A stretch of DNA of 64,000 nucleotides from Candidatus Limnocylindria bacterium (GTDB lineage Bacteria; Chloroflexota; Limnocylindria; QHBO01). Made by a program: the position numbers and the translations under genes. How positions within the stretch are numbered: the first letter of the stretch is position 1; every line of letters begins with the position of its first letter. Shown here piece after piece: positions 792-55,370 of this stretch. The notes beneath the pieces are model-generated. The model was not told where the DNA came from and ran no database searches. It saw only the letters and a list, made by a program, of their open reading frames with translations. The DNA lies in contig DASTTX010000160.1 of NCBI GenBank assembly GCA_035759945.1, positions 22,004-86,003 on the forward strand, in the 5' to 3' direction.

Positions 792-2210
792 CTAGCGATG
801 TCGGAGGCGCGCTGGGAGGATCTGCAGCTCGTCGCGGTACTTGGCGACGGTTCGACGTGCCAGCGCGATCCCCTCTTCGGCCAGCGCGTCGGCGATCTCC
901 TGGTCCGAGAGCGGATGCTTCGGATCCTCGGCCTCGATCATGCGCTTGATCTGGTCCTTCACCCCCAGCGAGGCGGTGAAGAAGTGGCTGAAGGGCACGA
1001 CCTCGCCGGATGGGATCATCACGTACTTCTCGGCGGTGGCGCGACTGACGGTGGACTCGTGCATGCCGATCAGCTCGCCGACCTCGGCTCGCGTAAGGGG
1101 TACGAGGTGCTGGACGCCATTGACGAGATAGTCGCGCTGACGATCCACCAGCGCCTCGGCGATGCGCTGGATCGTGGCGCGGCGGCGATTGATGTTGTCG
1201 ATGAAGAACTTCGCGCGCCCGACGTACTGGCGGACATGCTGCTTCTCGACCTCGGTGGTCTCGTTGCTTCGCAGCTTCGAGCTCAGGCTCGAGTAGATCG
1301 GCGCGACGCGGAGGCTGAAGCGACGCGATTCGACGACCTCGACGGTGAGCTCCCCGTCGATGTCCCGAATGAGGACGTCGGGCCGGATGATGGGGCGGGA
1401 GGCGTCGGGGCTGACCGCGGCGGTGAAGGCGGCCGTCGGATAGGGATTGAGGTTGCCCTTCACGAACTCCCAGACCCCGATGACGTCGCGCTGGGTGATC
1501 CCGACCGATGCGGCCACCTCGCGGAAGCGGCGTTCGCCGAGGTCCGCCAGGTGGTGGCCCACGACCTCCTCGGCGCGAGGCGGAATCTCCACCTCGCCCT
1601 GCTCGCGCAGGTACTCGATCTGTGCCAGCAGCGACTCGGTGATGGAGCGTGAGCCGATGCCGATCGGCTCGAGCCCCTTCATCGCTGCCAGCACTTCCTC
1701 GACGTCGTCGACCGTGACGCCCGTGGCGTCGGCGATCTCGACATCGGTCTGCGTCAGGAAGCCGTTCGAATCGAGCGCACCGATGACGTGGTCGGCGACC
1801 GGGTGCAGGCGTGACGGCAGGAGCGCATGCAGGTTCCAGGTGAGGTGGTCCTCCAGCGTGAAGTCGGCCTCGGCTCGAGCGATCGGGTCGAACTCGTCGG
1901 CCTCGTCGCGCAGCCGGGTCTGGCCATCGCCAGGGAGGTCATCGGCGCTGGTGAGGCGACCGCCGTCCTCGGCGTCCTCCGCCTTGCGCGGCATGCACTC
2001 GGTGCAGTAGTTGCCCGCGATCGGGCTGCCGCAGATCGGGCAGGTCGCCTGCTCCTGCATCTCGAGCGCCGGGTTCTCGTCGAGCTCCTGCGCGATCGCC
2101 TCCTGGAGCTCGACGGAGCTCATCTGGAGGATGTAGTTCGCCGCGATCTGCTTCGGGGTGACCTTGACATGCATCACCGGCTGAAGCTGCTGGCTGATCT
2201 CGACGGACAT
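792..2210 (-). CDS. rpoN: RNA polymerase sigma-54 factor RpoN
   Basis: Region I is Leu/Gln-rich (MSVEISQQLQ...ILQMSSVELQEAIAQEL), region II is acidic, and the C-terminal RpoN box reads ARRTVAKYR, preceded by an HTH. The track ORF starts with TTG at 2222. ATG at 2210 is preceded by GAGGT and is the likelier start. Confidence 0.9.
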   Translation of the reverse strand: MSVEISQQLQPVMHVKVTPKQIAANYILQMSSVELQEAIAQELDENPALEMQEQATCPICGSPIAGNYCTECMPRKAEDAEDGGRLTSADDLPGDGQTRLRDEADEFDPIARAEADFTLEDHLTWNLHALLPSRLHPVADHVIGALDSNGFLTQTDVEIADATGVTVDDVEEVLAAMKGLEPIGIGSRSITESLLAQIEYLREQGEVEIPPRAEEVVGHHLADLGERRFREVAASVGITQRDVIGVWEFVKGNLNPYPTAAFTAAVSPDASRPIIRPDVLIRDIDGELTVEVVESRRFSLRVAPIYSSLSSKLRSNETTEVEKQHVRQYVGRAKFFIDNINRRRATIQRIAEALVDRQRDYLVNGVQHLVPLTRAEVGELIGMHESTVSRATAEKYVMIPSGEVVPFSHFFTASLGVKDQIKRMIEAEDPKHPLSDQEIADALAEEGIALARRTVAKYRDELQILPARLRHR

Positions 2211-2239
2211 CGGACCTCGCAAGAGTGTGGGAAGAAAGA

Positions 2240-2245
2240 ATTATA
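2240..2245 (-). promoter_or_regulatory. Candidate -10 hexamer (TATAAT on minus strand) ~30 nt upstream of the rpoN ATG
   Basis: An AT-rich patch (gaagaaagaattatagg) sits in otherwise 70% GC DNA. Its reverse complement reads ...cctATAATtctttcttcccacactcttgcGAGGTccgATG. No convincing -35 was seen. Confidence 0.3.
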
Positions 2246-9826: not shown

Positions 9827-9939
9827 CGGCGCTCGCCGACCATCCAAAGTACTAGTGCGGTCCGTGTCGGCCACCGTATGATGCCGCCTGTCACCGCGGT
9901 GCCGGCCGTCTCCCGGCCGCGTGCGCCAACGGTGCCCTT

Positions 9940-11749: not shown

Positions 11750-13018
11750 CTACGGGTAGAGCCCGCGCAGCATGGTCGCCTCGGCGACGCGGGCGACGGC
11801 GACCATGTAGGCCGCGGTCCGCATGTCCACCTCGTGGCGCTCGCTCATGGCGTAGACCGCCTCGAAGGCGCGGTCCATGATCTCCTTGAGGCTCTCGTTG
11901 ATGCGCTCCTCGGTCCAGAAGAAGCTCTGCATGTCCTGGACCCACTCGAAGTAGCTGACCGTCACGCCGCCGGCGTTGCAGAGGATGTCGGGGATGAGGA
12001 AGACGCCGCGGTCGTAGAGGATCGCATCGGCTTCAGGAGTGGTCGGTCCGTTGGCGGCCTCGGCCACGACCTTGGCCTTGATGCGTGGGGCGTTGTGCCG
12101 CGTGATCTGATTCTCGAGCGCGGCCGGGACGAGGATGTCGCAGTCGACCTCGAGCAGCTCCTGGTTGCTGACCTCGTCGGCTCCGGGGAAGCCGACCACC
12201 GTGCCGTGCTCCTGCTTCCACGTCCCGACCTTCGATGGCTCCAGGCCGTTCGCGTTGTGGATGCCGCCGCTCGAGTCGCTCACGGCCACGATGGTGGCCC
12301 CCTGCTCGCGCAGCAGCGTCGCCGCGATGCTGCCGGCGTTGCCGTAGCCCTGGATCGCGACGCGCGCGCCGTGGAGCGGCTGGTTCTTCGCCGCCGCCCA
12401 CTGCTGGAGCGTGAACACGGCGCCACGCGCGGTGGCCTCGTTGCGGCCCAGCGAGCCACCGACCGCGATCGGCTTGCCGGTCACGACGCCGGGGATGGTG
12501 AAGCCGTGGTGCATGGAATAGGTGTCCATGATCCAGGCCATGGTCTGCGCGTTGGTGTTGACGTCCGGTGCAGGGATGTCGCGCTCGGGACCGATGAGCG
12601 GGCTGATCTCCGTCGTGAAGCGGCGCGTCAGCCCCTCGACCTCGCGGATCGACAGCTGCTTGGGATCGACGACCACGCCGCCCTTGGCTCCGCCGTACGG
12701 AATGTTGACGCACGCGCACTTCCACGTCATCCACATCGACAGCGCACGGACCTCGTCCAGGCTCACGTCCTGGTGGTAGCGGATGCCACCCTTGCCCGGC
12801 CCGCGGCTCACGTTGTGCTGGACGCGGTGGCCGGTGAAGACGCGGACGGATCCGTCGTCCATGGTGACGGGGAAGTTGACCGTCAGCTCACGCTGGGGAA
12901 CGCGGAGGACGCGCCGCATGCCATCGTCGAGATCGAGCTTGTCGGCTGCGTGGTCGAACTGCGACTGGGCGACCGCCCAGATGTTCGGTGCCTCCGCCAC
13001 GGGGTTCTGGCTGGCCAT
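11750..13018 (-). CDS. gdhA: Glutamate dehydrogenase (Glu/Leu/Phe/Val dehydrogenase family), paralog 1
   Basis: Catalytic-lysine region GGAKGG, an NAD(P) Rossmann fold (GYGNAGS), and a conserved dimerisation domain. Confidence 0.9.
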   Translation of the reverse strand: MASQNPVAEAPNIWAVAQSQFDHAADKLDLDDGMRRVLRVPQRELTVNFPVTMDDGSVRVFTGHRVQHNVSRGPGKGGIRYHQDVSLDEVRALSMWMTWKCACVNIPYGGAKGGVVVDPKQLSIREVEGLTRRFTTEISPLIGPERDIPAPDVNTNAQTMAWIMDTYSMHHGFTIPGVVTGKPIAVGGSLGRNEATARGAVFTLQQWAAAKNQPLHGARVAIQGYGNAGSIAATLLREQGATIVAVSDSSGGIHNANGLEPSKVGTWKQEHGTVVGFPGADEVSNQELLEVDCDILVPAALENQITRHNAPRIKAKVVAEAANGPTTPEADAILYDRGVFLIPDILCNAGGVTVSYFEWVQDMQSFFWTEERINESLKEIMDRAFEAVYAMSERHEVDMRTAAYMVAVARVAEATMLRGLYP

Positions 13019-13159
13019 AGGTGCGGTGAGTGCCTCCTATGCGACGCGACGCCGGCGCCTCTACGCGCCGCATGGTCCGAAGGCGGAAGCAGGCCGGATC
13101 GCGGTGACGGTTCCCGATTCTAGCGCAGGTCTCGTACGCGCCACCGGTACGAAGGAGGG

Positions 13160-15532
13160 ATGCGCGCCGAGCGCTCGACGGACGTCCGTCCCGCTAGCAT
13201 CACGCCGATGACAACCGCCGACGTGCTCGAGGCTCCCCCACCCCGCCTCACGACCGCCGATGCCGAGGGCGTCGCCCGAACCACGTTCGGCATCGAGGCC
13301 ACCGCCGAGCCACTCGTCAGCGAGCGCGATCAGAACTTCCGGCTGACCGATGCCGCCGGCGCCGGATGGGTCCTGAAGGTCTCCAACGCTGCGGAGGACC
13401 CCGGCGTGGTGGAGATGGAGGTCGCGGCCGTCGAGCGGATCGCGCTGGTCGAACCCGGGCTGCCACTGCCGGTGGCGCGGCCCGCGCTCGACGGATCCCC
13501 GATCGCGACGACCCACATCGGTGAAACGCAGCACCTCGTGCGCCTCCTGCCGCTCCTGCCTGGCCGCAACGCCAGGCCGGGCGAGCTGGACGCCGCCAGC
13601 GTCCGCGACATCGGCGAGCTGGTGGCGCGCATCGGCCATGCATTACGTGGGTTCTTCCATCCCGCCGCAGGCAGGACGATCCTGTGGGACCAGCAGCGGC
13701 TGCCCCTTCTCTTCAAGCACAGCGCCTTGGTCGAAGCACGACCGCGTCGCGATCTCCTGGAACGAGTGCTCGAGCGCTTCCGCGACCGGGTCCTGCCGGC
13801 GCTGCCGACGCTCCGGTCACAGGTCATTCACAACGACCTGACGCTCGACAACCTCCTGGTGGACGAGGCCGGGCACGTGACGGGCGTCATCGACTTCGGC
13901 GACATGGCCCACACCGCGCTGGTGCTCGACATCCCCGCCACGCTCCAGTCGCTCGTCCGCGAGCGCGATGAAATCTTCGCCGTGGCACAGGCATTCCTGG
14001 CCGGCTATGCGTCGGTCGTGCCGCTCGAGGAGCTCGAGGTGGAGCTGCTCGGCGACCTGCTGGCCGGGCGGATGGCGCAGACGATCCTGATCAGCGCGTT
14101 TCGCACCAGGCAGTACCCGGACAACGCCTACATCCACGGCTGGGCGGAGCCGGCCTGGGTGCTGCTCGAGCAGCTCGACGCGATCGGCTTCGACGATGCC
14201 TCACGCCGGCTTGCCGCCATGGCGGCGCAGCCGATGGGCTCCTCCGTCGCGAGCGACGAGGCGCTCATCGCGCGGCGGGCCGTGCTCGGCAGCGCGCTGG
14301 AGCCGCTGAGCTATCGGCGACCGCTGCATCTGGTTCGCGGGCGCGGCGCGTGGCTGGGGGACGCCGATGGACGGCGCTACCTCGACGCCTACAACAACGT
14401 GCCCGTCGTCGGCCATGCGCACCCGAAGGTGGTCGACGCCATCGCGCGCCAGTCATCGTTGCTGAACACGAACACGCGCTACCTGCACGAGCACGTGGTC
14501 GAGCTGGCGGAGCGCATCACTGCGTCCATGCCCGACGGGCTCGACACGGTCATGTTCGTCAACTCCGGGAGCGAGGCGAACGACCTCGCCTGGCGCATCG
14601 CCTCGACGGTGACCGGCGGCGACGCCGGGCTCGTCACGGATTGGGCGTACCACGGCGTCACGGCACGGATCGCGGATTTCTCGCCGTCTGAGTGGAACGA
14701 CGGCGTGCGGCCCGATGGCGTGGAGACGTTCGCGGCACCCAACACCTACCGAGGCCCGTCCGCCGACGCTGATGACCCGCCAGCGATCGCCGCCGAGGAG
14801 ATGGGATCTGCCGTGGCGCGACTGGGCGAGCGTGGTCGGCGGCCAGCGGCGCTGTACATCGACTCGCTCTTCAGCGCCGACGGGATCTTCACGCCGGATC
14901 CTGCGGTCGTTCGAGCGCTGGTGGAGTCGGCGCGCAAGGCCGGTGCGCTGTGGGTGGCGGATGAGGTCCAGTCCGGCCACGGCCGCACCGGCGGCGGCCT
15001 GTGGGGCTTCAGCGCATGGGGCATCACGCCGGACTTCGTCACGCTCGGCAAGCCGATGGGGAACGGTTATCCGATCGCTGCGGTCGTCACCCGCTCGGAC
15101 CTCGTGGACCGGTTCGCGAAGGCGACGACGTTCTTCAGCACCTTCGGCGGCAATCCGGTGGCGTGCGCCGCGGCGCTCGCCGTGCTGGACGTGATCGAGG
15201 ACGAGGACCTGGTCGCGCGGGCAGCGACCGTCGGCGACTCGCTGCGAGGCGACCTGTCGGCGCTCGCCGACAGCCATCCGTCCATCGGCGACGTGCGCGG
15301 CCGCGGGCTGATCGCCGGCGTCGAGCTCGTGCTCGACCGCGTCACGCGGGAGCCCGATCGTGAGCTGGCCGCTCGTGTCAAGGACGAGATGCGCGAGCGC
15401 GGCGTGCTGATCGGGACGACCGGCCGCCACGGCAACGTCCTGAAGATCCGTCCCCCGCTCGCGATCACCGCCGACGAGGCAGTGATGATCCCGACCCGCC
15501 TCGGCCAGGTGCTGACGGACCTCGAGCGCTAG
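13160..15532 (+). CDS. Fusion protein: N-terminal APH/choline-kinase-like kinase domain + C-terminal class-III (PLP) aminotransferase/phospho-lyase-like domain
   Basis: Kinase Brenner motif HNDLTLDN (HxDxxxxN) and IDFGD. C-terminal GK-box TLGKPMGNG (PLP lysine), DEVQSG and class-III hallmarks. 790 aa; an alternative start is MTTADVL at 13208. Confidence 0.85.
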   Translation: MRAERSTDVRPASITPMTTADVLEAPPPRLTTADAEGVARTTFGIEATAEPLVSERDQNFRLTDAAGAGWVLKVSNAAEDPGVVEMEVAAVERIALVEPGLPLPVARPALDGSPIATTHIGETQHLVRLLPLLPGRNARPGELDAASVRDIGELVARIGHALRGFFHPAAGRTILWDQQRLPLLFKHSALVEARPRRDLLERVLERFRDRVLPALPTLRSQVIHNDLTLDNLLVDEAGHVTGVIDFGDMAHTALVLDIPATLQSLVRERDEIFAVAQAFLAGYASVVPLEELEVELLGDLLAGRMAQTILISAFRTRQYPDNAYIHGWAEPAWVLLEQLDAIGFDDASRRLAAMAAQPMGSSVASDEALIARRAVLGSALEPLSYRRPLHLVRGRGAWLGDADGRRYLDAYNNVPVVGHAHPKVVDAIARQSSLLNTNTRYLHEHVVELAERITASMPDGLDTVMFVNSGSEANDLAWRIASTVTGGDAGLVTDWAYHGVTARIADFSPSEWNDGVRPDGVETFAAPNTYRGPSADADDPPAIAAEEMGSAVARLGERGRRPAALYIDSLFSADGIFTPDPAVVRALVESARKAGALWVADEVQSGHGRTGGGLWGFSAWGITPDFVTLGKPMGNGYPIAAVVTRSDLVDRFAKATTFFSTFGGNPVACAAALAVLDVIEDEDLVARAATVGDSLRGDLSALADSHPSIGDVRGRGLIAGVELVLDRVTREPDRELAARVKDEMRERGVLIGTTGRHGNVLKIRPPLAITADEAVMIPTRLGQVLTDLER

Positions 15533-24195: not shown

Positions 24196-24805
24196 GGGCC
24201 GCATAGACCAGCACGACGACGGCGCCGGCGCTCCAGCCGGCCAGGACGTCGGTCGGATAGTGGACCCCGAGCCAGATGCGCGACAGGCCGATGAGCCCCA
24301 CCAGCAGGCCGAGCGCGACGACGATGGCGCTCCGGGCCGCACGTGGCAGGGCCGAGCGGCTGACCACCACGGCCAGCACCCCGTACGCGACCATGCCGAG
24401 CGCCGAATGGCCGGACGGGAAGCTGAAGCCATGCTCGACGATCACCGGTTCCAGGAGGTCCGGACGCTCGCGCGCGATCCCGATCTTGAACGCGCTGTTG
24501 CCGAGGGACGCCAGCGTGATCGCCAGCGCACCGGCCAGCCCGCTGCGCCACGTCCGCAGCAGCAGGCCCACCGCGGCGACGACGATGGCGACGGCGGTCA
24601 CCGCAGCGGTCGACCCGAGCTCGGTGATCGGCCGCAACGGCGAGAGCAGCGTCGCCAGCTCCGGCGCGCGAACGAGCGCGATGACCGATGCGTCGAATGA
24701 ATCGGTGAGGTCCGCGCTGACGAGGACGGCAAGCCCGATCACCAGCAGCACGCCGCCCGCGGCGAGGGCGAGCTCGATGCCCGAGCGACGTCGAAGCGAG
24801 GACAT
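24089..24805 (-). CDS. PAP2 family phosphatase (phosphatidic acid phosphatase type 2 / undecaprenyl-PP phosphatase-like)
   Basis: PAP2 motifs KxxxxxxRP (KIGIARERP), SFPSGHS and SRIWLGVHYPTDVLAG, plus six predicted TM helices. ATG at 24805. The track ORF's N-terminal 142 aa is read-through. Confidence 0.8.
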   Translation of the reverse strand: MSSLRRRSGIELALAAGGVLLVIGLAVLVSADLTDSFDASVIALVRAPELATLLSPLRPITELGSTAAVTAVAIVVAAVGLLLRTWRSGLAGALAITLASLGNSAFKIGIARERPDLLEPVIVEHGFSFPSGHSALGMVAYGVLAVVVSRSALPRAARSAIVVALGLLVGLIGLSRIWLGVHYPTDVLAGWSAGAVVVLVYAALTRPESPGPAEAVAAEDPAAPRSDPPAPASGAPPG

Positions 24806-24822
24806 GGGCGGCCAGTCTAGGG

Positions 24823-26823
24823 TTGGCTCGACATGATCCGCAGCCGATGAGAACCGCGGCCGGCCGAGCCATCGTGGCGACGGGGATCGTCGCGGCCGCG
24901 CTCCTGGTGGCGTGGCTTGCGCCGCCCACCGCGCCGCTGCTCGTGTGGCCTCTGCTGGTGATCGTGCCGGGCTGGTATGTGCTCGCTCGTCTCGGTCCCC
25001 GCATCGACGGGGTCGGCAGGTTGGGCCTCGCCGTCGTCGGCTCGGTGGCGTTGTCCACGCACCTCGTGTACTGGCTCTCCCAGCTGACCGATGGGTACAC
25101 CCGCGGGACGGTCTTCCTGGCTGCGGCGGTGCTCGCGACGCCGCTGCCGGTGGCCGCGTGGGCGGCCCCTCATCGGCCGCGGGTCGGTCGCGGCGCCCTT
25201 GCCGTCGTGGCGCTCGGCGCACTGGCGGCACTGGTCGTGGGAGTGACGCTGGGAATCGGAATCTGGCGCGTGACGCCGGACGGCGTCTCCTCAGGCGGCT
25301 CGAACTGGAGCGACCTCGGCGTGCACCTTTCGATTGCCGAGACGCTCAATGCCGGCACCAACTTCCCGCCGGAGGTGCCGTACTTCGCCGGCGTGCCACT
25401 GACCTATCACTGGTTCGCCGACTTCCACGCCGCCATCCTGGCCGCCGCCGCCGGCATCTTCAGCGTGCCGGCCATGGTCTTCCAGTCGGCGTTGCTTGCG
25501 TTCGCGCTGGTCCTCCTCGTCGCATCGCTCGCCCGCCGCCTGGTGCGCGGTCACGACGCCCGTCGCGTCGCGCTGCTGGCGGCGGCGCTGGCCGTGTTCG
25601 GCGGCGGCATCGGCTACATCCGCTTCATCGGCGACGTCGGCGCGGGCCAGCTCTCGCCGCTCGAGCTCATCGCGCGCAACAGCTACGACAACCAGTGGCT
25701 CACCGGCTGGCCGTACTTCCGAATTCCGTCGGTCATGGGCACCGGCCTGCTGGCGCACCGCGCGACGACGGCCGGGCTGCCGATGCTGATCGGTGCCGTG
25801 CTGCTGCTCGTGACCGGGCTTCCGTCGGCGCGCCAGCGGGCGCGTGGCTGGCGCGATCGGCCCCTCGTGATCGGCGCGGCGGGCGTGCTCGGCGCCCTGC
25901 TGGCGCCGTTCCACTTCTTCTTTTTCCCCGTCTTCCCGCTGCTGGCGTTGGCGTGGGTCGTGGCGGGCCGGCGGCTGCTCGACGCGTCCGCGCCGCGGAG
26001 CGCGCTCACGCTCCTCGCGCCATACGTGCTGGCGCTGCCCTTCGTGATCGCCCCGGCGCTGCAGGCGGGCGGCTCGGGCGCGGTCCAGGTGGTCAGCGTG
26101 TGGCCGTCCGCTCCTCGCGAGGACGGCCTGGCCGCCGTGCTCTTCTTCTACGTCACCAACCTCGGCGTTCCCTTCGTGCTCGCGTTGGCCGCCCTGCTGC
26201 TGCCCCGCGTGCCGCACCGCGGCTTCATCGCCGCCTGGATCATCGGCCTGTTCCTGGTCCCGAACGTCGTGCAGCTCAGCGTCATCGACTTCGACATGAA
26301 CAAGTACTTCCAGGCGATGTGGATCGCGGTCGCCGTCCTGGCCGCGTGGCTCATCCGTCGCTGGCCGGCGCCCGCGGTGGCGGCGGTCATCGCGCTCAGC
26401 GTCCCGTCGCCGCTCCTCGTTGCGGGATGGACAGCGACGAGCAATCTCCAGGCGCTTTCGACCGCCGAGCTGGAGGCGGCTCACTGGGTGGCCGCCCACA
26501 CGCCACCGGACGCCGTCTTCGTGACCGACGGCTGGGTCAACTCGCTGACCGATGCGGCGGGACGCAAGCGGCTCACGACGTTCGGGCCGTACGTCGCCAA
26601 CCTGGGCTACCGCCCCGATGAGCGGATCAGCAACGTGATCAGCATCTACTGCGGGGGCGACACCGCCCTGTCCGCGCAGCTGATGCGGCGCTACGGGGCG
26701 AGCTACGTGGTGGATGGAGCGCGGCCGACGCCGTGCGTCGCCGCGGTCGACTTCGCGAGCGATCCGGCCTTCGAGCTCGTCTACGACGCCGGCCCACGCA
26801 TCTGGCATCTGCGCGACCCATAA
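24823..26823 (+). CDS. Large polytopic membrane protein, GT-C-type glycosyltransferase-like
   Basis: 666 aa, roughly 14 hydrophobic segments with a periplasmic-loop-rich architecture typical of GT-C (ArnT/PMT/Emb-like) enzymes. It is divergent from the PAP2 gene, with only 17 bp between the annotated starts. I did not identify a specific family. Confidence 0.6.
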   Translation: MARHDPQPMRTAAGRAIVATGIVAAALLVAWLAPPTAPLLVWPLLVIVPGWYVLARLGPRIDGVGRLGLAVVGSVALSTHLVYWLSQLTDGYTRGTVFLAAAVLATPLPVAAWAAPHRPRVGRGALAVVALGALAALVVGVTLGIGIWRVTPDGVSSGGSNWSDLGVHLSIAETLNAGTNFPPEVPYFAGVPLTYHWFADFHAAILAAAAGIFSVPAMVFQSALLAFALVLLVASLARRLVRGHDARRVALLAAALAVFGGGIGYIRFIGDVGAGQLSPLELIARNSYDNQWLTGWPYFRIPSVMGTGLLAHRATTAGLPMLIGAVLLLVTGLPSARQRARGWRDRPLVIGAAGVLGALLAPFHFFFFPVFPLLALAWVVAGRRLLDASAPRSALTLLAPYVLALPFVIAPALQAGGSGAVQVVSVWPSAPREDGLAAVLFFYVTNLGVPFVLALAALLLPRVPHRGFIAAWIIGLFLVPNVVQLSVIDFDMNKYFQAMWIAVAVLAAWLIRRWPAPAVAAVIALSVPSPLLVAGWTATSNLQALSTAELEAAHWVAAHTPPDAVFVTDGWVNSLTDAAGRKRLTTFGPYVANLGYRPDERISNVISIYCGGDTALSAQLMRRYGASYVVDGARPTPCVAAVDFASDPAFELVYDAGPRIWHLRDP

Positions 26824-37362: not shown

Positions 37363-37489
37363 CGGGACGGTCCTCCTCGGGCGGTGCGTGAGCGTCGGTC
37401 GGGATGCACGTGCCGCCGACGCATCGGTGTGGAATGGACGGGCTCATCTTGCCACCGCCGCCTTGCGGCGCGCGCTAGCCTAGACACCG

Positions 37490-38761
37490 ATGACGACCGA
37501 GCGGCGGCGCGCGACATCGGCCAACGACCTGTGGACCCACATCCAGGGCGAGCTGGACGCAGCGGCCGAGCGGCTGGGGCTCGACGACGGCATGCATCGC
37601 GTGCTGCGCGTGCCGAAGCGCGAGCTGACGGTGCACTTCCCGGTCACGCATGACGACGGACACGTCGAGGTCTACACCGGTTACCGCGTGCACCACAACG
37701 TCAATCGCGGACCGACCACGGGCGGCATCCGCTACGTGCCCGGCCTCGACCTCGACGAGGTGCGCGCGCTGGCCATGCTCAACACCTGGAAGGCGGCGCT
37801 CGTGAGGATCCCGTTCGGCGGCGCGGCCGGCGGCGTGCGGGTCAACCCGCGCCGGCTGTCCGAGAACGAGCGGCAGGGCCTGACACGCCGGTTCGCGACC
37901 GAGATCGGTCCCCTGCTGGGGCCCGACAGCGACATCCCCAGCCCCGACGTCAACACCGGCTCGCAGACGATGGCGTGGATCATGGACACGCTCTCGATGC
38001 ACCGGGGCCATACGGTGGCGGCGTCGGTGATCGGCAAGCCGCTCGCCATCGGCGGGACGCGTGGACGTCGCAGCGCCACGGCGCGCGGCGCGTTTCGATG
38101 CATCGCGGCCAGCGCCGCGAGCATGGGCCTCGAGCTGAACGGCTCGCGGGTGGCGATCCAGGGCTTCGGGCGCGTCGGCATGACGATCGCCGAGGAGCTC
38201 GCCGGGGCGGGCGTTCGCGTTGTCGCACTCGCCGACGATCGAGATGCCGTCGCCAACGAGTCCGGGATCACCGTGGATCGGGCAGTTGACTGGATGCGCG
38301 AGCACGATGCCATCAGCGGCCTGCCCGAGACAGAGCCGATGACCAAGGCCGACATTTTCGCGATCGACTGCGACGTCCTCGTCCTTGCGGGACTCCAGGG
38401 CGAAGTGACCGATGGCAACGCCGGCGCCATCAAGGCCCGCATCGTGGCCGAGGTCGCCAACGGCGGCACGACGCCAGCCGCCGACCTGGTGCTGGCCGAT
38501 CGCGGCGTGACCGTCATCCCGGACATCGTGGCCACAGCGGGCGGGACCGTGCTCGGCTACTTCGAGTGGGTGCAGGACATGCAGGCCTTCTTCTGGAGCG
38601 AGGCCGAGATCACCGCGCAGCTGGACCGGATCATGGACGAGGCGATGGGTGACATCGGGGCCATGGCCAGCGCCGAGAGGGTCGACCTGCGCAGCGCGGC
38701 GATGATGGTCGCCGTGTCGCGCGTCGCCGATGCCACGACGCTGCGCGGGCTCTACCCCTAG
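37490..38761 (+). CDS. Glutamate dehydrogenase (Glu/Leu/Phe/Val dehydrogenase family), paralog 2
   Basis: Clearly paralogous to 11750..13018 (e.g. DGMHRVLRVPKRELTVHFPVTHDDGHVEVYTGYRVHHNVNRGP vs [43 protein letters not shown]). The GGAAGG catalytic-Lys loop differs slightly. Confidence 0.9.
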   Translation: MTTERRRATSANDLWTHIQGELDAAAERLGLDDGMHRVLRVPKRELTVHFPVTHDDGHVEVYTGYRVHHNVNRGPTTGGIRYVPGLDLDEVRALAMLNTWKAALVRIPFGGAAGGVRVNPRRLSENERQGLTRRFATEIGPLLGPDSDIPSPDVNTGSQTMAWIMDTLSMHRGHTVAASVIGKPLAIGGTRGRRSATARGAFRCIAASAASMGLELNGSRVAIQGFGRVGMTIAEELAGAGVRVVALADDRDAVANESGITVDRAVDWMREHDAISGLPETEPMTKADIFAIDCDVLVLAGLQGEVTDGNAGAIKARIVAEVANGGTTPAADLVLADRGVTVIPDIVATAGGTVLGYFEWVQDMQAFFWSEAEITAQLDRIMDEAMGDIGAMASAERVDLRSAAMMVAVSRVADATTLRGLYP

Positions 38762-38857
38762 CTGACCCGCTCCGGCCCGGTTCGTGCAACCATAAGGTTC
38801 CCGCCCTATTCCAAGTGCGCGTCCGTACCAGCGGTGCGCCGATTCCACCGGAGCACG

Positions 38858-39796
38858 ATGACAACGCCAGCCTTCACGCAGCCGCGCGACCTCCTCACCG
38901 AGCTCGAGCCCGTGGCCGAACGCCTGCTCAATCGCCACCTCGGCATAGCAAGGGAGTGGTTCCCGCACGATTACGTTCCGTACTCGCTCGGACGTGACTA
39001 CGACAAGGAGCCGTGGACGCCGGACCAGCCGCGGATCAGCGGCGTCGCGCAGATCGCGTTCGAGGTCAACCTCCTCACCGAGGACAACCTGCCCAGCTAC
39101 CACCGTGAGATCCACCGCATGTTCGGCCGTGGCGACGGACCGTGGATCAACTGGGTGAACCGATGGACCGCCGAGGAGGGACGCCACGCGATCGTGCTGC
39201 GCGACTATCTCGTGGTCACGCGAAACATCGACCCGTACGCGCTCGAGCGGTCACGCATGAACCAGCTGCAGATCGCCTACGACCACGACGACGGTGGCAA
39301 TGTCCTGCGCGGCCTCGCCTACGTCGCCTTCCAGGAGCTCGCGACGCGCATCAGCCACCGCAACACCGGCCGCTACTCCGCCGATCCGGTCGCCGATCGG
39401 ATCATGGCCCGCATCGCCGCCGACGAGAACCTCCACATGGTCTTCTACCGCGACATGCTGTCGGAGGCGATGAAGATCGATCCGTCGGCCGCCGTCCACG
39501 CCATCGCCGACGAGGTCATCGGCTTCCAGATGCCCGGCGCCGGCATGGTGAGCTTCACCCGCAAGGCGGCCCAGATGGCGAAGGCCGGGATCTATGACCT
39601 GCGTGTGCACCACGACGATGTCGTCTGGCCGCTGCTCACCCACTGGGGCATCTTCGAGCTCACCAACCTCGACGCATCGGCCGAGCTCCGTCGCGAGGAG
39701 CTGCGCCGATTCCTCGTGGACCTCGACGCGCAGGCCTCGCGCTTCGAGGCGAAGCGAGCCCTCAACCTCGAGCGCGAAGCGGCTCGGGCCGGCTAG
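38858..39796 (+). CDS. Soluble acyl-ACP (stearoyl-ACP-type) desaturase, DesA1/DesA2-like di-iron enzyme
   Basis: Two ExxH di-iron motifs (EEGRHAIVLRDYL; DENLHMVFYRD) within a ferritin-like four-helix fold. ATG at 38858 (MTTPAF). The track ORF starts 8 codons earlier. Confidence 0.85.
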   Translation: MTTPAFTQPRDLLTELEPVAERLLNRHLGIAREWFPHDYVPYSLGRDYDKEPWTPDQPRISGVAQIAFEVNLLTEDNLPSYHREIHRMFGRGDGPWINWVNRWTAEEGRHAIVLRDYLVVTRNIDPYALERSRMNQLQIAYDHDDGGNVLRGLAYVAFQELATRISHRNTGRYSADPVADRIMARIAADENLHMVFYRDMLSEAMKIDPSAAVHAIADEVIGFQMPGAGMVSFTRKAAQMAKAGIYDLRVHHDDVVWPLLTHWGIFELTNLDASAELRREELRRFLVDLDAQASRFEAKRALNLEREAARAG

Positions 39797-53990: not shown

Positions 53991-54095
53991 GCTCGGTCTC
54001 CGATGTGAGAGGTGGTCGGCAGCGGACTCCCCCGTCGGTGGCCGATTCTATCGGTCCCGTCCAGCCTGCGGCACCCCAGCGCCGACCGCTTTAGA

Positions 54096-55370
54096 ATTCG
54101 CAGCGTGACGCTTCGCCTGTACGATGCCCGCCGGGGCGGACTGCATCCGTTCGAGCCCATCCCCGGCCGGGATCGGGTCGGCCTGTACGTCTGCGGCGTG
54201 ACACCCTACGACACCGGACACGTCGGGCACGCCTTCACCTACGTCAGCTTCGACGTCCTGCATCGGTATCTCGAGTACCTCGGCCATGACGTCGTCTACG
54301 TTCAGAACCTGACCGATGTCGACGACGACATGCTGCGCAAGGCGCGCGAGACCGGCGAGGACTATCTCGCGCTCGGCAACCGATGGGTGACCACGTTCCT
54401 CACCGAGATGGCGGCCCTGAACTGGCTGCCGCCGGACCACTATCCGCGGGCCACCGAACACATTCCGCAGATGCAGGAGCTCATCGGGTCGCTGCTCGCG
54501 AACGGCCTCGCCTACGCCGCCGATGGCAACGTCTACTTCAGCGTCGACGCCGACCCGCGCTATGGCGAGGTGTCGCACCTGCCCCGCGAGGAGATGCTGC
54601 CGATCGCCAACCAGCGCGGCAACGTGCCCGACATGCCGGGCAAGCGTCAGCCGCTCGACTTCGTGCTCTGGCAGCGATCGGCGCCCGACGAGCCGTCGTG
54701 GGAGGCACCCTGGGGTGCCGGGCGGCCGGGTTGGCACATCGAGTGTTCGGCCATGTCGATGGCATACCTCGGGACCCAGTTCGAGATCCACGGCGGCGGC
54801 GGCGACCTGATCTTCCCGCACCACGAGTCGGAGCGGGCGCAGTCGGAGGGCGCAACCGGCGATCGCCCCTTCGTGGGGTGGTGGACGCACGCCGGGATGC
54901 TCAGCTACCAGGGCGACAAGATGAGCAAGTCGCTGGGCAACCTGGTGCTCGTGCGAGATCTGCTCCGCAGCTACTCCGGCGACGCCATCCGGCACTACCT
55001 GGTCAGCCAGCACTACCGCTCCGAGGTCGCCTTCGTCGAGGATGACCTCAAGCGGTCAGCCGATGCCGTCGAGATCCTCCGCCGCGCCTCGCTGCGCGCG
55101 GAGGAAGCCGGCGTGTCGGCGACGCCACGGGACGGCGAGCTCAGCGCCAGCGTGCGCGAGCACTGCACGAGGTTCCTGGCCGCCATGGACGCCGACCTCG
55201 ACACGCCGCGCGCGATGCCCGAGCTCGCGGCGCTGGCTGAGATGGCACTCGCGACCGACGATGCGGCCATGGCCGCGGAGGCCGGCTGGATGGTCCGCGA
55301 GCTGGGCGGCCGCATCCTCGGCCTGCGGCTGGCGGCCGTGCCCGCGGCGCGCAGCACCGTGGCGGCGTGA
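54096..55370 (+). CDS. mshC: L-cysteine:1D-myo-inositol 2-amino-2-deoxy-alpha-D-glucopyranoside ligase (mycothiol ligase) MshC
   Basis: A CysRS paralog lacking the anticodon-binding domain. Motifs shared with M. tuberculosis MshC: LRLYD, YVCG(V/I)TPYD, HVGHA (HIGH), YVQN(L/I)TD(V/I)DD, PGRPGWH, GGGDLIFPHHE, KMSKSLGNLVLV. GTG start at 54096; 424 aa. Confidence 0.8.
   Translation: MRSVTLRLYDARRGGLHPFEPIPGRDRVGLYVCGVTPYDTGHVGHAFTYVSFDVLHRYLEYLGHDVVYVQNLTDVDDDMLRKARETGEDYLALGNRWVTTFLTEMAALNWLPPDHYPRATEHIPQMQELIGSLLANGLAYAADGNVYFSVDADPRYGEVSHLPREEMLPIANQRGNVPDMPGKRQPLDFVLWQRSAPDEPSWEAPWGAGRPGWHIECSAMSMAYLGTQFEIHGGGGDLIFPHHESERAQSEGATGDRPFVGWWTHAGMLSYQGDKMSKSLGNLVLVRDLLRSYSGDAIRHYLVSQHYRSEVAFVEDDLKRSADAVEILRRASLRAEEAGVSATPRDGELSASVREHCTRFLAAMDADLDTPRAMPELAALAEMALATDDAAMAAEAGWMVRELGGRILGLRLAAVPAARSTVAA

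Follow-up and report, generated by a model that had tools for sequence, protein, structure and literature searches.

What is a pair of cysteine knuckles doing inside a bacterial sigma-54 factor, at the point where the part engaged by its activators gives way to the part that enters RNA polymerase (RNAP)? The question is raised by the rpoN gene of a soil Candidatus Limnocylindria bacterium, which lies near one end of a 64,000-nucleotide stretch of contig DASTTX010000160.1 (hereafter the window, meaning that whole stretch). The gene encodes a sigma-54 whose region II opens with a four-cysteine (Cys4) module, CPICGSPIAGNYCTEC. The four cysteines are under strong selection, and we give an even chance to the reading that the protein is a canonical enhancer-dependent sigma-54 in which a structural zinc knuckle makes region II.1 (RII.1) a folded element.

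A sigma-54 whose region II opens with four cysteines

The gene and its parts are as follows, with residue numbers here and throughout counted from the TTG codon of the 476-amino-acid open reading frame (ORF).

792..2222, minus strand: rpoN (sigma-54) ORF, TTG start at 2222, 476 amino acids, stop codon 794-792 (ORF list)
2240..2245, minus strand: TATAAT, a sigma-70-type −10 box upstream of rpoN (sequence)
2215..2218, minus strand: GAGG, Shine-Dalgarno-like, 4 nt upstream of ATG 2210 (sequence)
2058..2195, minus strand: region I, the activator-interacting domain, residues 10-55, last residues ENPALE (Pfam PF00309 Sigma54_AID, 43.4 bits against a cut-off of 23.8)
1995..2042, minus strand: Cys4 module CPICGSPIAGNYCTEC with C61, C64, C73 and C76, a zinc-ribbon-like knuckle pair opening region II (translation)
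1875..1994, minus strand: remainder of region II, residues 77-116: an acidic linker, disordered, followed by DEADEFDPIARAE, which corresponds in position to the E. coli/Klebsiella RII-finger
1293..1874, minus strand: core-binding domain, residues 117-310 (Pfam PF04963 Sigma54_CBD, 124 bits; AlphaFold2 (AF2) predicted local distance difference test (pLDDT) above 90)
795..1238, minus strand: DNA-binding domain with helix-turn-helix and RpoN box, residues 329-476 (Pfam PF04552 Sigma54_DBD, 142 bits)
834-860, minus strand: RpoN box ARRTVAKYR (regular expression)

Translation probably starts at ATG 2210 (M5 of the ORF), giving a protein of 472 amino acids, because GAGG and TATAAT stand upstream of this codon and homologs of 470-472 amino acids align from residue 5. 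The gene is a sigma-54. Besides the three Pfam domains and the RpoN box, the full-length NCBIfam equivalog TIGR02395 (rpoN_sigma) reaches 302 bits, above its cut-off of 277. Consistently, the AF2 model (mean pLDDT 88.7, built on an 84-sequence alignment) matches E. coli sigma-N in RNAP complexes with a template modelling score of 0.66-0.68 in Foldseek. An earlier reading of the DNA from its letters only (the sequence-only reading) had called the RpoN homolog unambiguous, and these data bear it out. Region I is modelled as two helices, residues 23-33 and 36-49, at pLDDT 93-97.

The minus-strand translation of 1995-2042, CPICGSPIAGNYCTEC, contains C61-x2-C64-x8-C73-x2-C76, exactly the motif and placement that the sequence-only reading had given, and these are the sole cysteines of the entire protein. 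The motif begins six residues past the ENPALE that closes region I, and so at the very start of region II. In a pairwise alignment it falls on residues ~55-70 of the E. coli and Klebsiella proteins, the start of RII.1, with no net length change, and neither protein has a Cys at the aligned positions. Region II measures 62 amino acids in the window protein and 64 in E. coli (residues 57-120; PMC5095919).

Four ligand-type cysteines paired as two CxxC knuckles make up the arrangement of a zinc ribbon. The consensus of 123 non-redundant carriers reads NPALE-[LVM]-x-E-x3-C-P-x-C-G-x-P-L-x-G-x2-C-P-x-C-G, with a hydrophobic residue (Leu or aromatic) and a Gly kept in the spacer. In the same set the module is approximately neutral (mean net charge +0.3), and the 24 residues downstream form a low-information acidic stretch with a net charge of about −3. 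Further on, a DEFDPI segment of the window protein coincides in position with the RII-finger, and its 'DP' is conserved in the clade consensus.

When the isolated module segment was compared with Pfam, the best matches in six of the eight lineages tested were DZR (PF12773) and Zn_Ribbon_1 (PF13240), all short of the curated thresholds (16-23 bits against 27.3 and 12-19 bits against 25, respectively). The module shares with these families the two CxxC knuckles, the short spacer and the CPxCG signature, but would be a single ribbon and not a double one. Weak similarities to the topoisomerase, RPB9 and TFIIB ribbons were likewise sub-threshold, and Rubredoxin and the rubredoxin-like domain of rubrerythrin gave weak matches as well. 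By these comparisons the module is a generic two-knuckle, zinc-ribbon-like element outside every curated family. In the AF2 model, pLDDT is 95 for residues 51-60, averages 84 for 61-70 and 68 for 71-80, and is below 50 for 79-108, with short strands around the module at 53-57, 60 and 67. The ribbon fold predicted by this model is plausible, not established.

The sigma-54 proteins of E. coli, Klebsiella pneumoniae and Aquifex aeolicus (5NWT, 7QV9, 8F1I, 5UI5) share with the window protein the three-region architecture, the RpoN box and the fold, as well as a similar region II length, an acidic linker and an RII-finger-like segment. In contrast, the region I/II junction of the solved proteins is free of Cys and their RII.1 is acidic and largely unstructured, where the window protein has its Cys4 knuckle pair. 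The module is in none of the 24 distinct solved sigma-54 sequences, and no Pfam or NCBIfam model covers the segment. Likewise, full-text searches of the open-access literature turned up no description of a zinc ribbon within sigma-54, the only zinc-ribbon link being FlgZ/HP0958 (PMC3372290). The statement of the sequence-only reading that the motif lies outside the described sigma-54 architecture agrees with all three sources. Within the limits of the open-access corpus the module appears undescribed, though it is abundant in public sequence data.

Conservation and distribution of the module

All 120 of the closest cluster representatives (84-94% identity) keep the four cysteines intact, and the residues between them vary. 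Consistently, a search of all frames found the module in 79 of 80 GTDB species-level loci, the one exception being cut by a contig end. Each Cys codon shows synonymous TGC/TGT variation across the 79 loci, with zero amino-acid replacement. Poor conservation or a sequencing artefact, either of which the sequence-only reading had named as its possible undoing, is contradicted by these counts; with 79 species-level assemblies, hundreds of metagenomic clusters and synonymous codon changes only, the probability of a chance motif or of a sequencing or assembly artefact is negligible.

The spacing is also unchanged in a subgroup at 51-54% identity, which carries CPLCGxPLxGRVCLxC. More distant proteins came from the 13,789 sigma-54 relatives that HMMER, run exhaustively against 1.84 billion cluster representatives, detected. 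The nearest 150 of these make up the distant set (31-47% identity, apart from one close relative and fragments), and 130 of them are full length. A canonical CxxC-x(5-14)-CxxC is present in 106 of the 130, with an 8-residue spacer in 79, and a further 11 have other Cys-rich variants. The first Cys stands at a fixed offset from NPAL in 86 of the 106 canonical carriers. A profile of the distant carriers brought in 111 further proteins, 106 of them canonical and five with C-x3-C-x7-C-x2-C. The latter form (CAGDCIDPATCPYC) marks a distinct subgroup; variant-form proteins include P0475, P0497, P0515, P0516 and P0522. A C-x2-C-x6-C-x2-C form was seen in two Armatimonadota-labelled proteins (P0471, P0476) and several unnamed representatives. 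Neither the 6-residue-spacer nor the Cx3C variants gave any Pfam zinc-ribbon match whatsoever.

A profile of the N-terminal part (region I plus the module) matched short N-terminal fragments only and no full-length sequences. In alignments of diverse carriers (52-67 rows), N50 and P51 were the only other invariant N-terminal residues, the invariance of the cysteines being there by construction, as the rows were chosen for having the motif.

The carriers with a taxon name belong to Limnocylindria; Ktedonobacterales; Anaerolineae, Anaerolineales and Anaerolineaceae; Roseiflexaceae and Kouleothrix; and three metagenome-assembled genomes (MAGs) labelled Armatimonadota, in one of which rpoN is on a 161-kb contig. 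For twenty proteins the cluster records were mostly blank and gave only the labels Ktedonobacterales, Chloroflexota, Anaerolineales and 'bacterium'. The ribbon is thus no oddity of this contig or of one lineage: four classes of Chloroflexota and MAGs labelled Armatimonadota carry it throughout this branch of sigma-54.

Host, promoters and activators

Over rpoN, the window and contig DASSCI010000005.1 share ~99% identity; that contig comes from the MAG of a 'Candidatus Limnocylindria bacterium', and the class Limnocylindria belongs to the phylum Chloroflexota. Nearly all of the 80 best loci at species level bear the label Limnocylindria, Chloroflexota or Chloroflexia, and the close homologs that have a name are mostly labelled Limnocylindria or Chloroflexota. 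The gene order is common to 60-70 other Limnocylindria/Chloroflexota assemblies, the neighbourhood conserved in the class comprising a Big_5 protein, rpoN, His_Phos_1, LepB, Ndk, an M16 peptidase, CoaX, CoaBC and PanC. Because this synteny is conserved and the divergence of rpoN is proportional to that of its neighbours, rpoN is a vertically inherited core gene; the same two observations rule out its horizontal acquisition. The TATAAT conserved upstream also fits vertical inheritance.

The sequence-only reading had proposed for the DNA an actinobacterial affinity, which the 99% match and the shared synteny overturn. It had relied on two genes of the window:

54009-55370, plus strand: CysS/MshC-like class I ligase, 453 amino acids (TIGR00435 CysS 396 bits, above the cut-off of 340; TIGR03447 MshC 371 bits, below the cut-off of 485)
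38762-39796, plus strand: FA_desaturase_2 gene

With scores under the MshC equivalog cut-off and over that of CysS, the first gene does not serve as an actinobacterial marker. It covers only positions 1-375 of the 466 of TIGR00435, the C-terminal part being missing, and may be a cysteine ligase that serves some other low-molecular-weight thiol. The second is a genuine FA_desaturase_2 member, as had been proposed, but the family is not diagnostic of a phylum. Opposite it, at 39176-39243 on the minus strand, Rfam ASdes (a mycobacterial antisense small RNA) matches at 55.8 bits; the match probably reflects conservation of the desaturase coding sequence and not a real small RNA in Chloroflexota.

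Actinomycetota are effectively without rpoN (PMC12316311), in agreement with the remark of the sequence-only reading that sigma-54 is absent or rare there. Sigma-54 and its activators have been reported in 'some Chloroflexi' (PMC3162934), so with a Chloroflexota host the gene is expected and not anomalous. High GC content and a few "actinobacterial-looking" genes are insufficient to place a contig.

Near-identical Limnocylindria-type rpoN genes were also seen on contigs labelled in public MAGs as Conexibacteraceae (Actinomycetota), Steroidobacteraceae, Sphingomonadaceae, Angelobacter, Binatia and Methylomirabilota (L064, L017, L020, L028, L062, L008; P0019, P0069, P0416). Among the 80 loci, the Steroidobacteraceae, Angelobacter and Conexibacteraceae labels sit on a handful of short contigs. 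Such stray labels are probably due to mis-binning, and mis-binned Limnocylindria records could yield false reports of sigma-54 in Actinomycetota.

In most Limnocylindria loci (L001-L071) a CC(C)TATAAT sequence precedes rpoN by 20-45 nt, and GAGG recurs downstream of this box, just upstream of the rpoN start, in many. Because the CCTATAAT box is conserved, rpoN is likely transcribed by the housekeeping machinery; in Limnocylindria it appears to be under a housekeeping-type promoter and not autoregulated. Within the window, no GAFTGA-type activator was found, no Sigma54_activat domain was detected in the ORFs scanned, and matches to the −24/−12 consensus were not enriched (22 against 17.2 expected). 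Motif, domain and consensus-count scans thus confirm the earlier impression that the window has neither an enhancer-binding protein nor a convincing sigma-54 promoter. A −24/−12-like site at 2510-2525, 303 nt upstream of rpoN, was put down to chance: it lies inside the His_Phos_1 gene and is present only in the near-identical contigs L001 and L002.

Outside the class, three of six sampled loci have an NtrC-type activator beside a module-bearing rpoN (L082, L084, L088). In an Anaerolineae MAG (L082), rpoN is followed by a PAS histidine kinase and then a Response_reg-Sigma54_activat-HTH_8 protein; in Kouleothrix (L084), an NtrC-type activator with ESELFGH and GAFTGA lies directly upstream of rpoN; and in a third MAG (L088) rpoN is followed by a kinase and then an activator. 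As carriers in other classes adjoin classical activators, the module is part of ordinary enhancer-dependent systems. The Anaerolineae locus L082 also holds four near-consensus −24/−12 sites against 0.58 expected. Two of them are intergenic and correctly oriented, and one, TTGGCACGGATCCTGCAAT, lies 73 nt upstream of rpoN.

Several further details of these loci were recorded. The sites at 9913-9928 and 15200-15215 of L082 bracket the rpoN-kinase-activator cluster, which suggests sigma-54 autoregulation in this locus. In the activator of the cluster (13833-15191), the canonical GAFTGA loop is replaced by GAFTNA. The L088 activator (12390-13595) has Response_reg and Sigma54_activat, with no HTH_8 DNA-binding domain recorded. 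Elsewhere in the window, there are two paralogs of the glutamate dehydrogenase family within 26 kb (11750-13036, minus strand, and 37484-38761, plus strand). An 802-amino-acid fusion joins an APH-type phosphotransferase domain to a class III aminotransferase (13124-15532, plus strand). A 700-amino-acid ORF at 24721-26823 (plus strand) has a coding-like GC content at third codon positions (0.89) and no Pfam match at E <= 1e-4.

Possible roles of the module

In known sigma-54 complexes, the −12 fork junction is close to region I and to the beginning of region II, and RII.1 is lodged in RNAP's downstream-DNA cleft (PMC5095919). RII.2 lies on the template-strand path, and the C-terminal RII-finger touches both the template strand and the path of RNA exit; no part of sigma-54 is less conserved than region II as a whole (PMC5095919; PMC10786286). 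Sigma-70 region 1.1 and sigma-54 RII.1 are both in the downstream-DNA channel and must exit for the open complex to form (PMC5095919). Standing at the RII.1 position, the module would be the counterpart of region 1.1 in the cleft; there is no homology between the two, region 1.1 being acidic, helical and without a metal site.

We infer zinc as the ligand, a folded ribbon, a location in the cleft and a function as a plug. Region II would open with a Cys4 mini-domain of ~16-25 residues, made of two CPxCG-type zinc knuckles and a short hairpin between them, and most probably holding one structural Zn2+. With a tether of fixed length linking it to the end of the region I helix (NPALE-x6-C), the module would replace the acidic, poorly ordered RII.1 of proteobacterial sigma-54. 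By analogy with the E. coli/Klebsiella holoenzyme, its position suggests that it may sit as a folded plug at or in the downstream-DNA cleft. Remodelling of region I by an AAA+ activator would then move the module aside, and the acidic disordered linker and the RII-finger-like DEFDPI segment would thread the active-site cleft to the core-binding domain.

Metal binding is putative, and several observations weigh against this proposal. Both E. coli RII.1 and sigma-70 region 1.1 are acidic, unlike the roughly neutral module, and the analogy with a DNA mimic may fail for this reason. In the AF2 model of an Armatimonadota variant with a 6-residue spacer, the module reaches a pLDDT of only ~50, and the fold was not replicated. 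Near-consensus sigma-54 sites in the 80 Limnocylindria loci (L001-L080, 1.3 Mb) number 9, fewer than the 11-29 found in mononucleotide-preserving shuffles, a deficit that may mean that spurious sites are selected against in a genome of 70% GC, or may be due to dinucleotide bias only. No activator was found within the 10-kb flanks of rpoN in these loci when they were scanned with GAFTGA and ESELFGH regular expressions.

Additionally, 13 of the 130 full-length clade representatives are without the module, 11 having no Cys there and two having one or two. In a neighbour-joining tree of 84 representatives, built on region I and III columns, star-like and poorly resolved, its ten module-less sequences are scattered among carriers. 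Absence and scatter together argue that the module is dispensable; that it was ancestral and lost several times is only suggestive. Region II is ~20 amino acids shorter in module-less clade members (median 38.5 against 61 in carriers). This comparison supports the description of the ribbon as 'inserted' in the sequence-only reading; the near equality of its region II with that of E. coli speaks against that word.

The overall layout recalls TFIIB, which has in the same order a Cys4 zinc ribbon, a flexible segment to the active site and RNA exit path, and a globular core domain; the RII-finger has itself been likened to the TFIIB B-linker (PMC5095919). However, the docking site of the B-ribbon is on the RNA-exit side, which in sigma-54 is taken by the core-binding domain (PMC5095919), and the module is at the opposite end of the linker. 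The Pfam match to the TFIIB family Zn_Ribbon_TF is weak (E = 0.023) and was obtained in one lineage. With a sub-threshold match and the opposite topology relative to the RNA exit, homology to the B-ribbon is ruled out, and the likeness is an analogy at most.

A different function for the same cysteines, one already raised in the sequence-only reading, would be to sense redox state or zinc from within the sigma factor. The module would unfold on oxidation or when zinc is scarce, and the lock of region I and RII.1 on the polymerase would change in strength, so that sigma-54 output would follow oxidative stress or metal status. Thiol-switch zinc sites are known from RsrA-type anti-sigma factors and Hsp33. 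Consistent with such a role, the four invariant cysteines are the only thiols of the protein and sit at the junction of the activator-contacting and cleft-occupying regions. We nevertheless regard it as unlikely, as nothing that points to sensing in particular was found, no redox or metal gene is linked to rpoN in the 80 syntenic loci and losses of the module are scattered through part of the clade. Moreover, gain and loss of structural Cys4 ribbons between lineages is common in information-processing machinery; ribosomal protein S4, for instance, exists in forms with and without zinc (PMC3087516). The wider proposal of a zinc-thiolate sensor in cis, through which oxidants or zinc would tune the region I/RII.1 lock in the sigma-54 of Chloroflexota and Armatimonadota, is rather unlikely. 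If it were true, a zinc-thiol switch that bacteria elsewhere put on separate anti-sigma factors would act in cis, and enhancer-dependent transcription would gain a second, activator-independent input, a new mode of sigma-factor regulation.

The neutral, partly hydrophobic surface of the module and the conserved Leu or aromatic residue of its spacer would also suit a protein-docking or stabilising element, and so would its fixed distance from region I, the element engaged by the activator. Such an element would bind a lineage-specific RNAP surface or the AAA+ activator ring, or protect the protein from a protease, as an internal counterpart of FlgZ/HP0958 (DUF164). FlgZ shows that a zinc ribbon is able to control RpoN stability, its cysteines being required for RpoN accumulation in H. 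pylori (PMC3372290), and its CxxC...CxxC zinc ribbon, functionally tied to RpoN, resembles the zinc-ribbon-like module. However, FlgZ is a separate protein that acts in trans, with a longer spacer and a coiled-coil body, and the module has no sequence relationship to DUF164. Given also that no conserved partner-gene candidate lies near rpoN, we assign docking a low probability.

Contact of the ribbon with nucleic acid, at the −12 fork junction or on the non-template strand, is quite improbable. The nearness of region I and the start of region II to that junction (PMC5095919) would allow it, many zinc ribbons of transcription proteins bind DNA or RNA, and the weak Pfam similarities to topoisomerase, RPB9 and TFIIB ribbons point the same way. 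All these matches are below threshold, though, and the module has no consistent positive charge and is followed by the acidic linker. An iron site, either a rubredoxin-like centre or an Fe-S cluster in place of zinc, is very improbable: CPxCG knuckles occur in rubredoxins too, and the rubredoxin-like families gave weak matches, but DZR is consistently the best match and the 8-residue spacer is far shorter than that of rubredoxins and typical of small zinc ribbons.

The structural zinc knuckle, as the reading we prefer, bears on a part of sigma-54 that the structural literature treats as largely unstructured and partly dispensable, yet which runs through the cleft of the polymerase and determines the barriers that DNA loading and promoter escape have to overcome. 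A 2025 cross-phylum survey of sigma-54 regulons makes no mention of Chloroflexota or Armatimonadota, and sigma-54 biology in Chloroflexota is essentially unstudied. A strongly selected, putative metal-binding module at the entrance of region II would mean that RII.1 can be a folded domain. The module is a natural handle for studying the function of the RII.1 position, and if rigid it might be resolved by cryo-electron microscopy where the proteobacterial segment is not.

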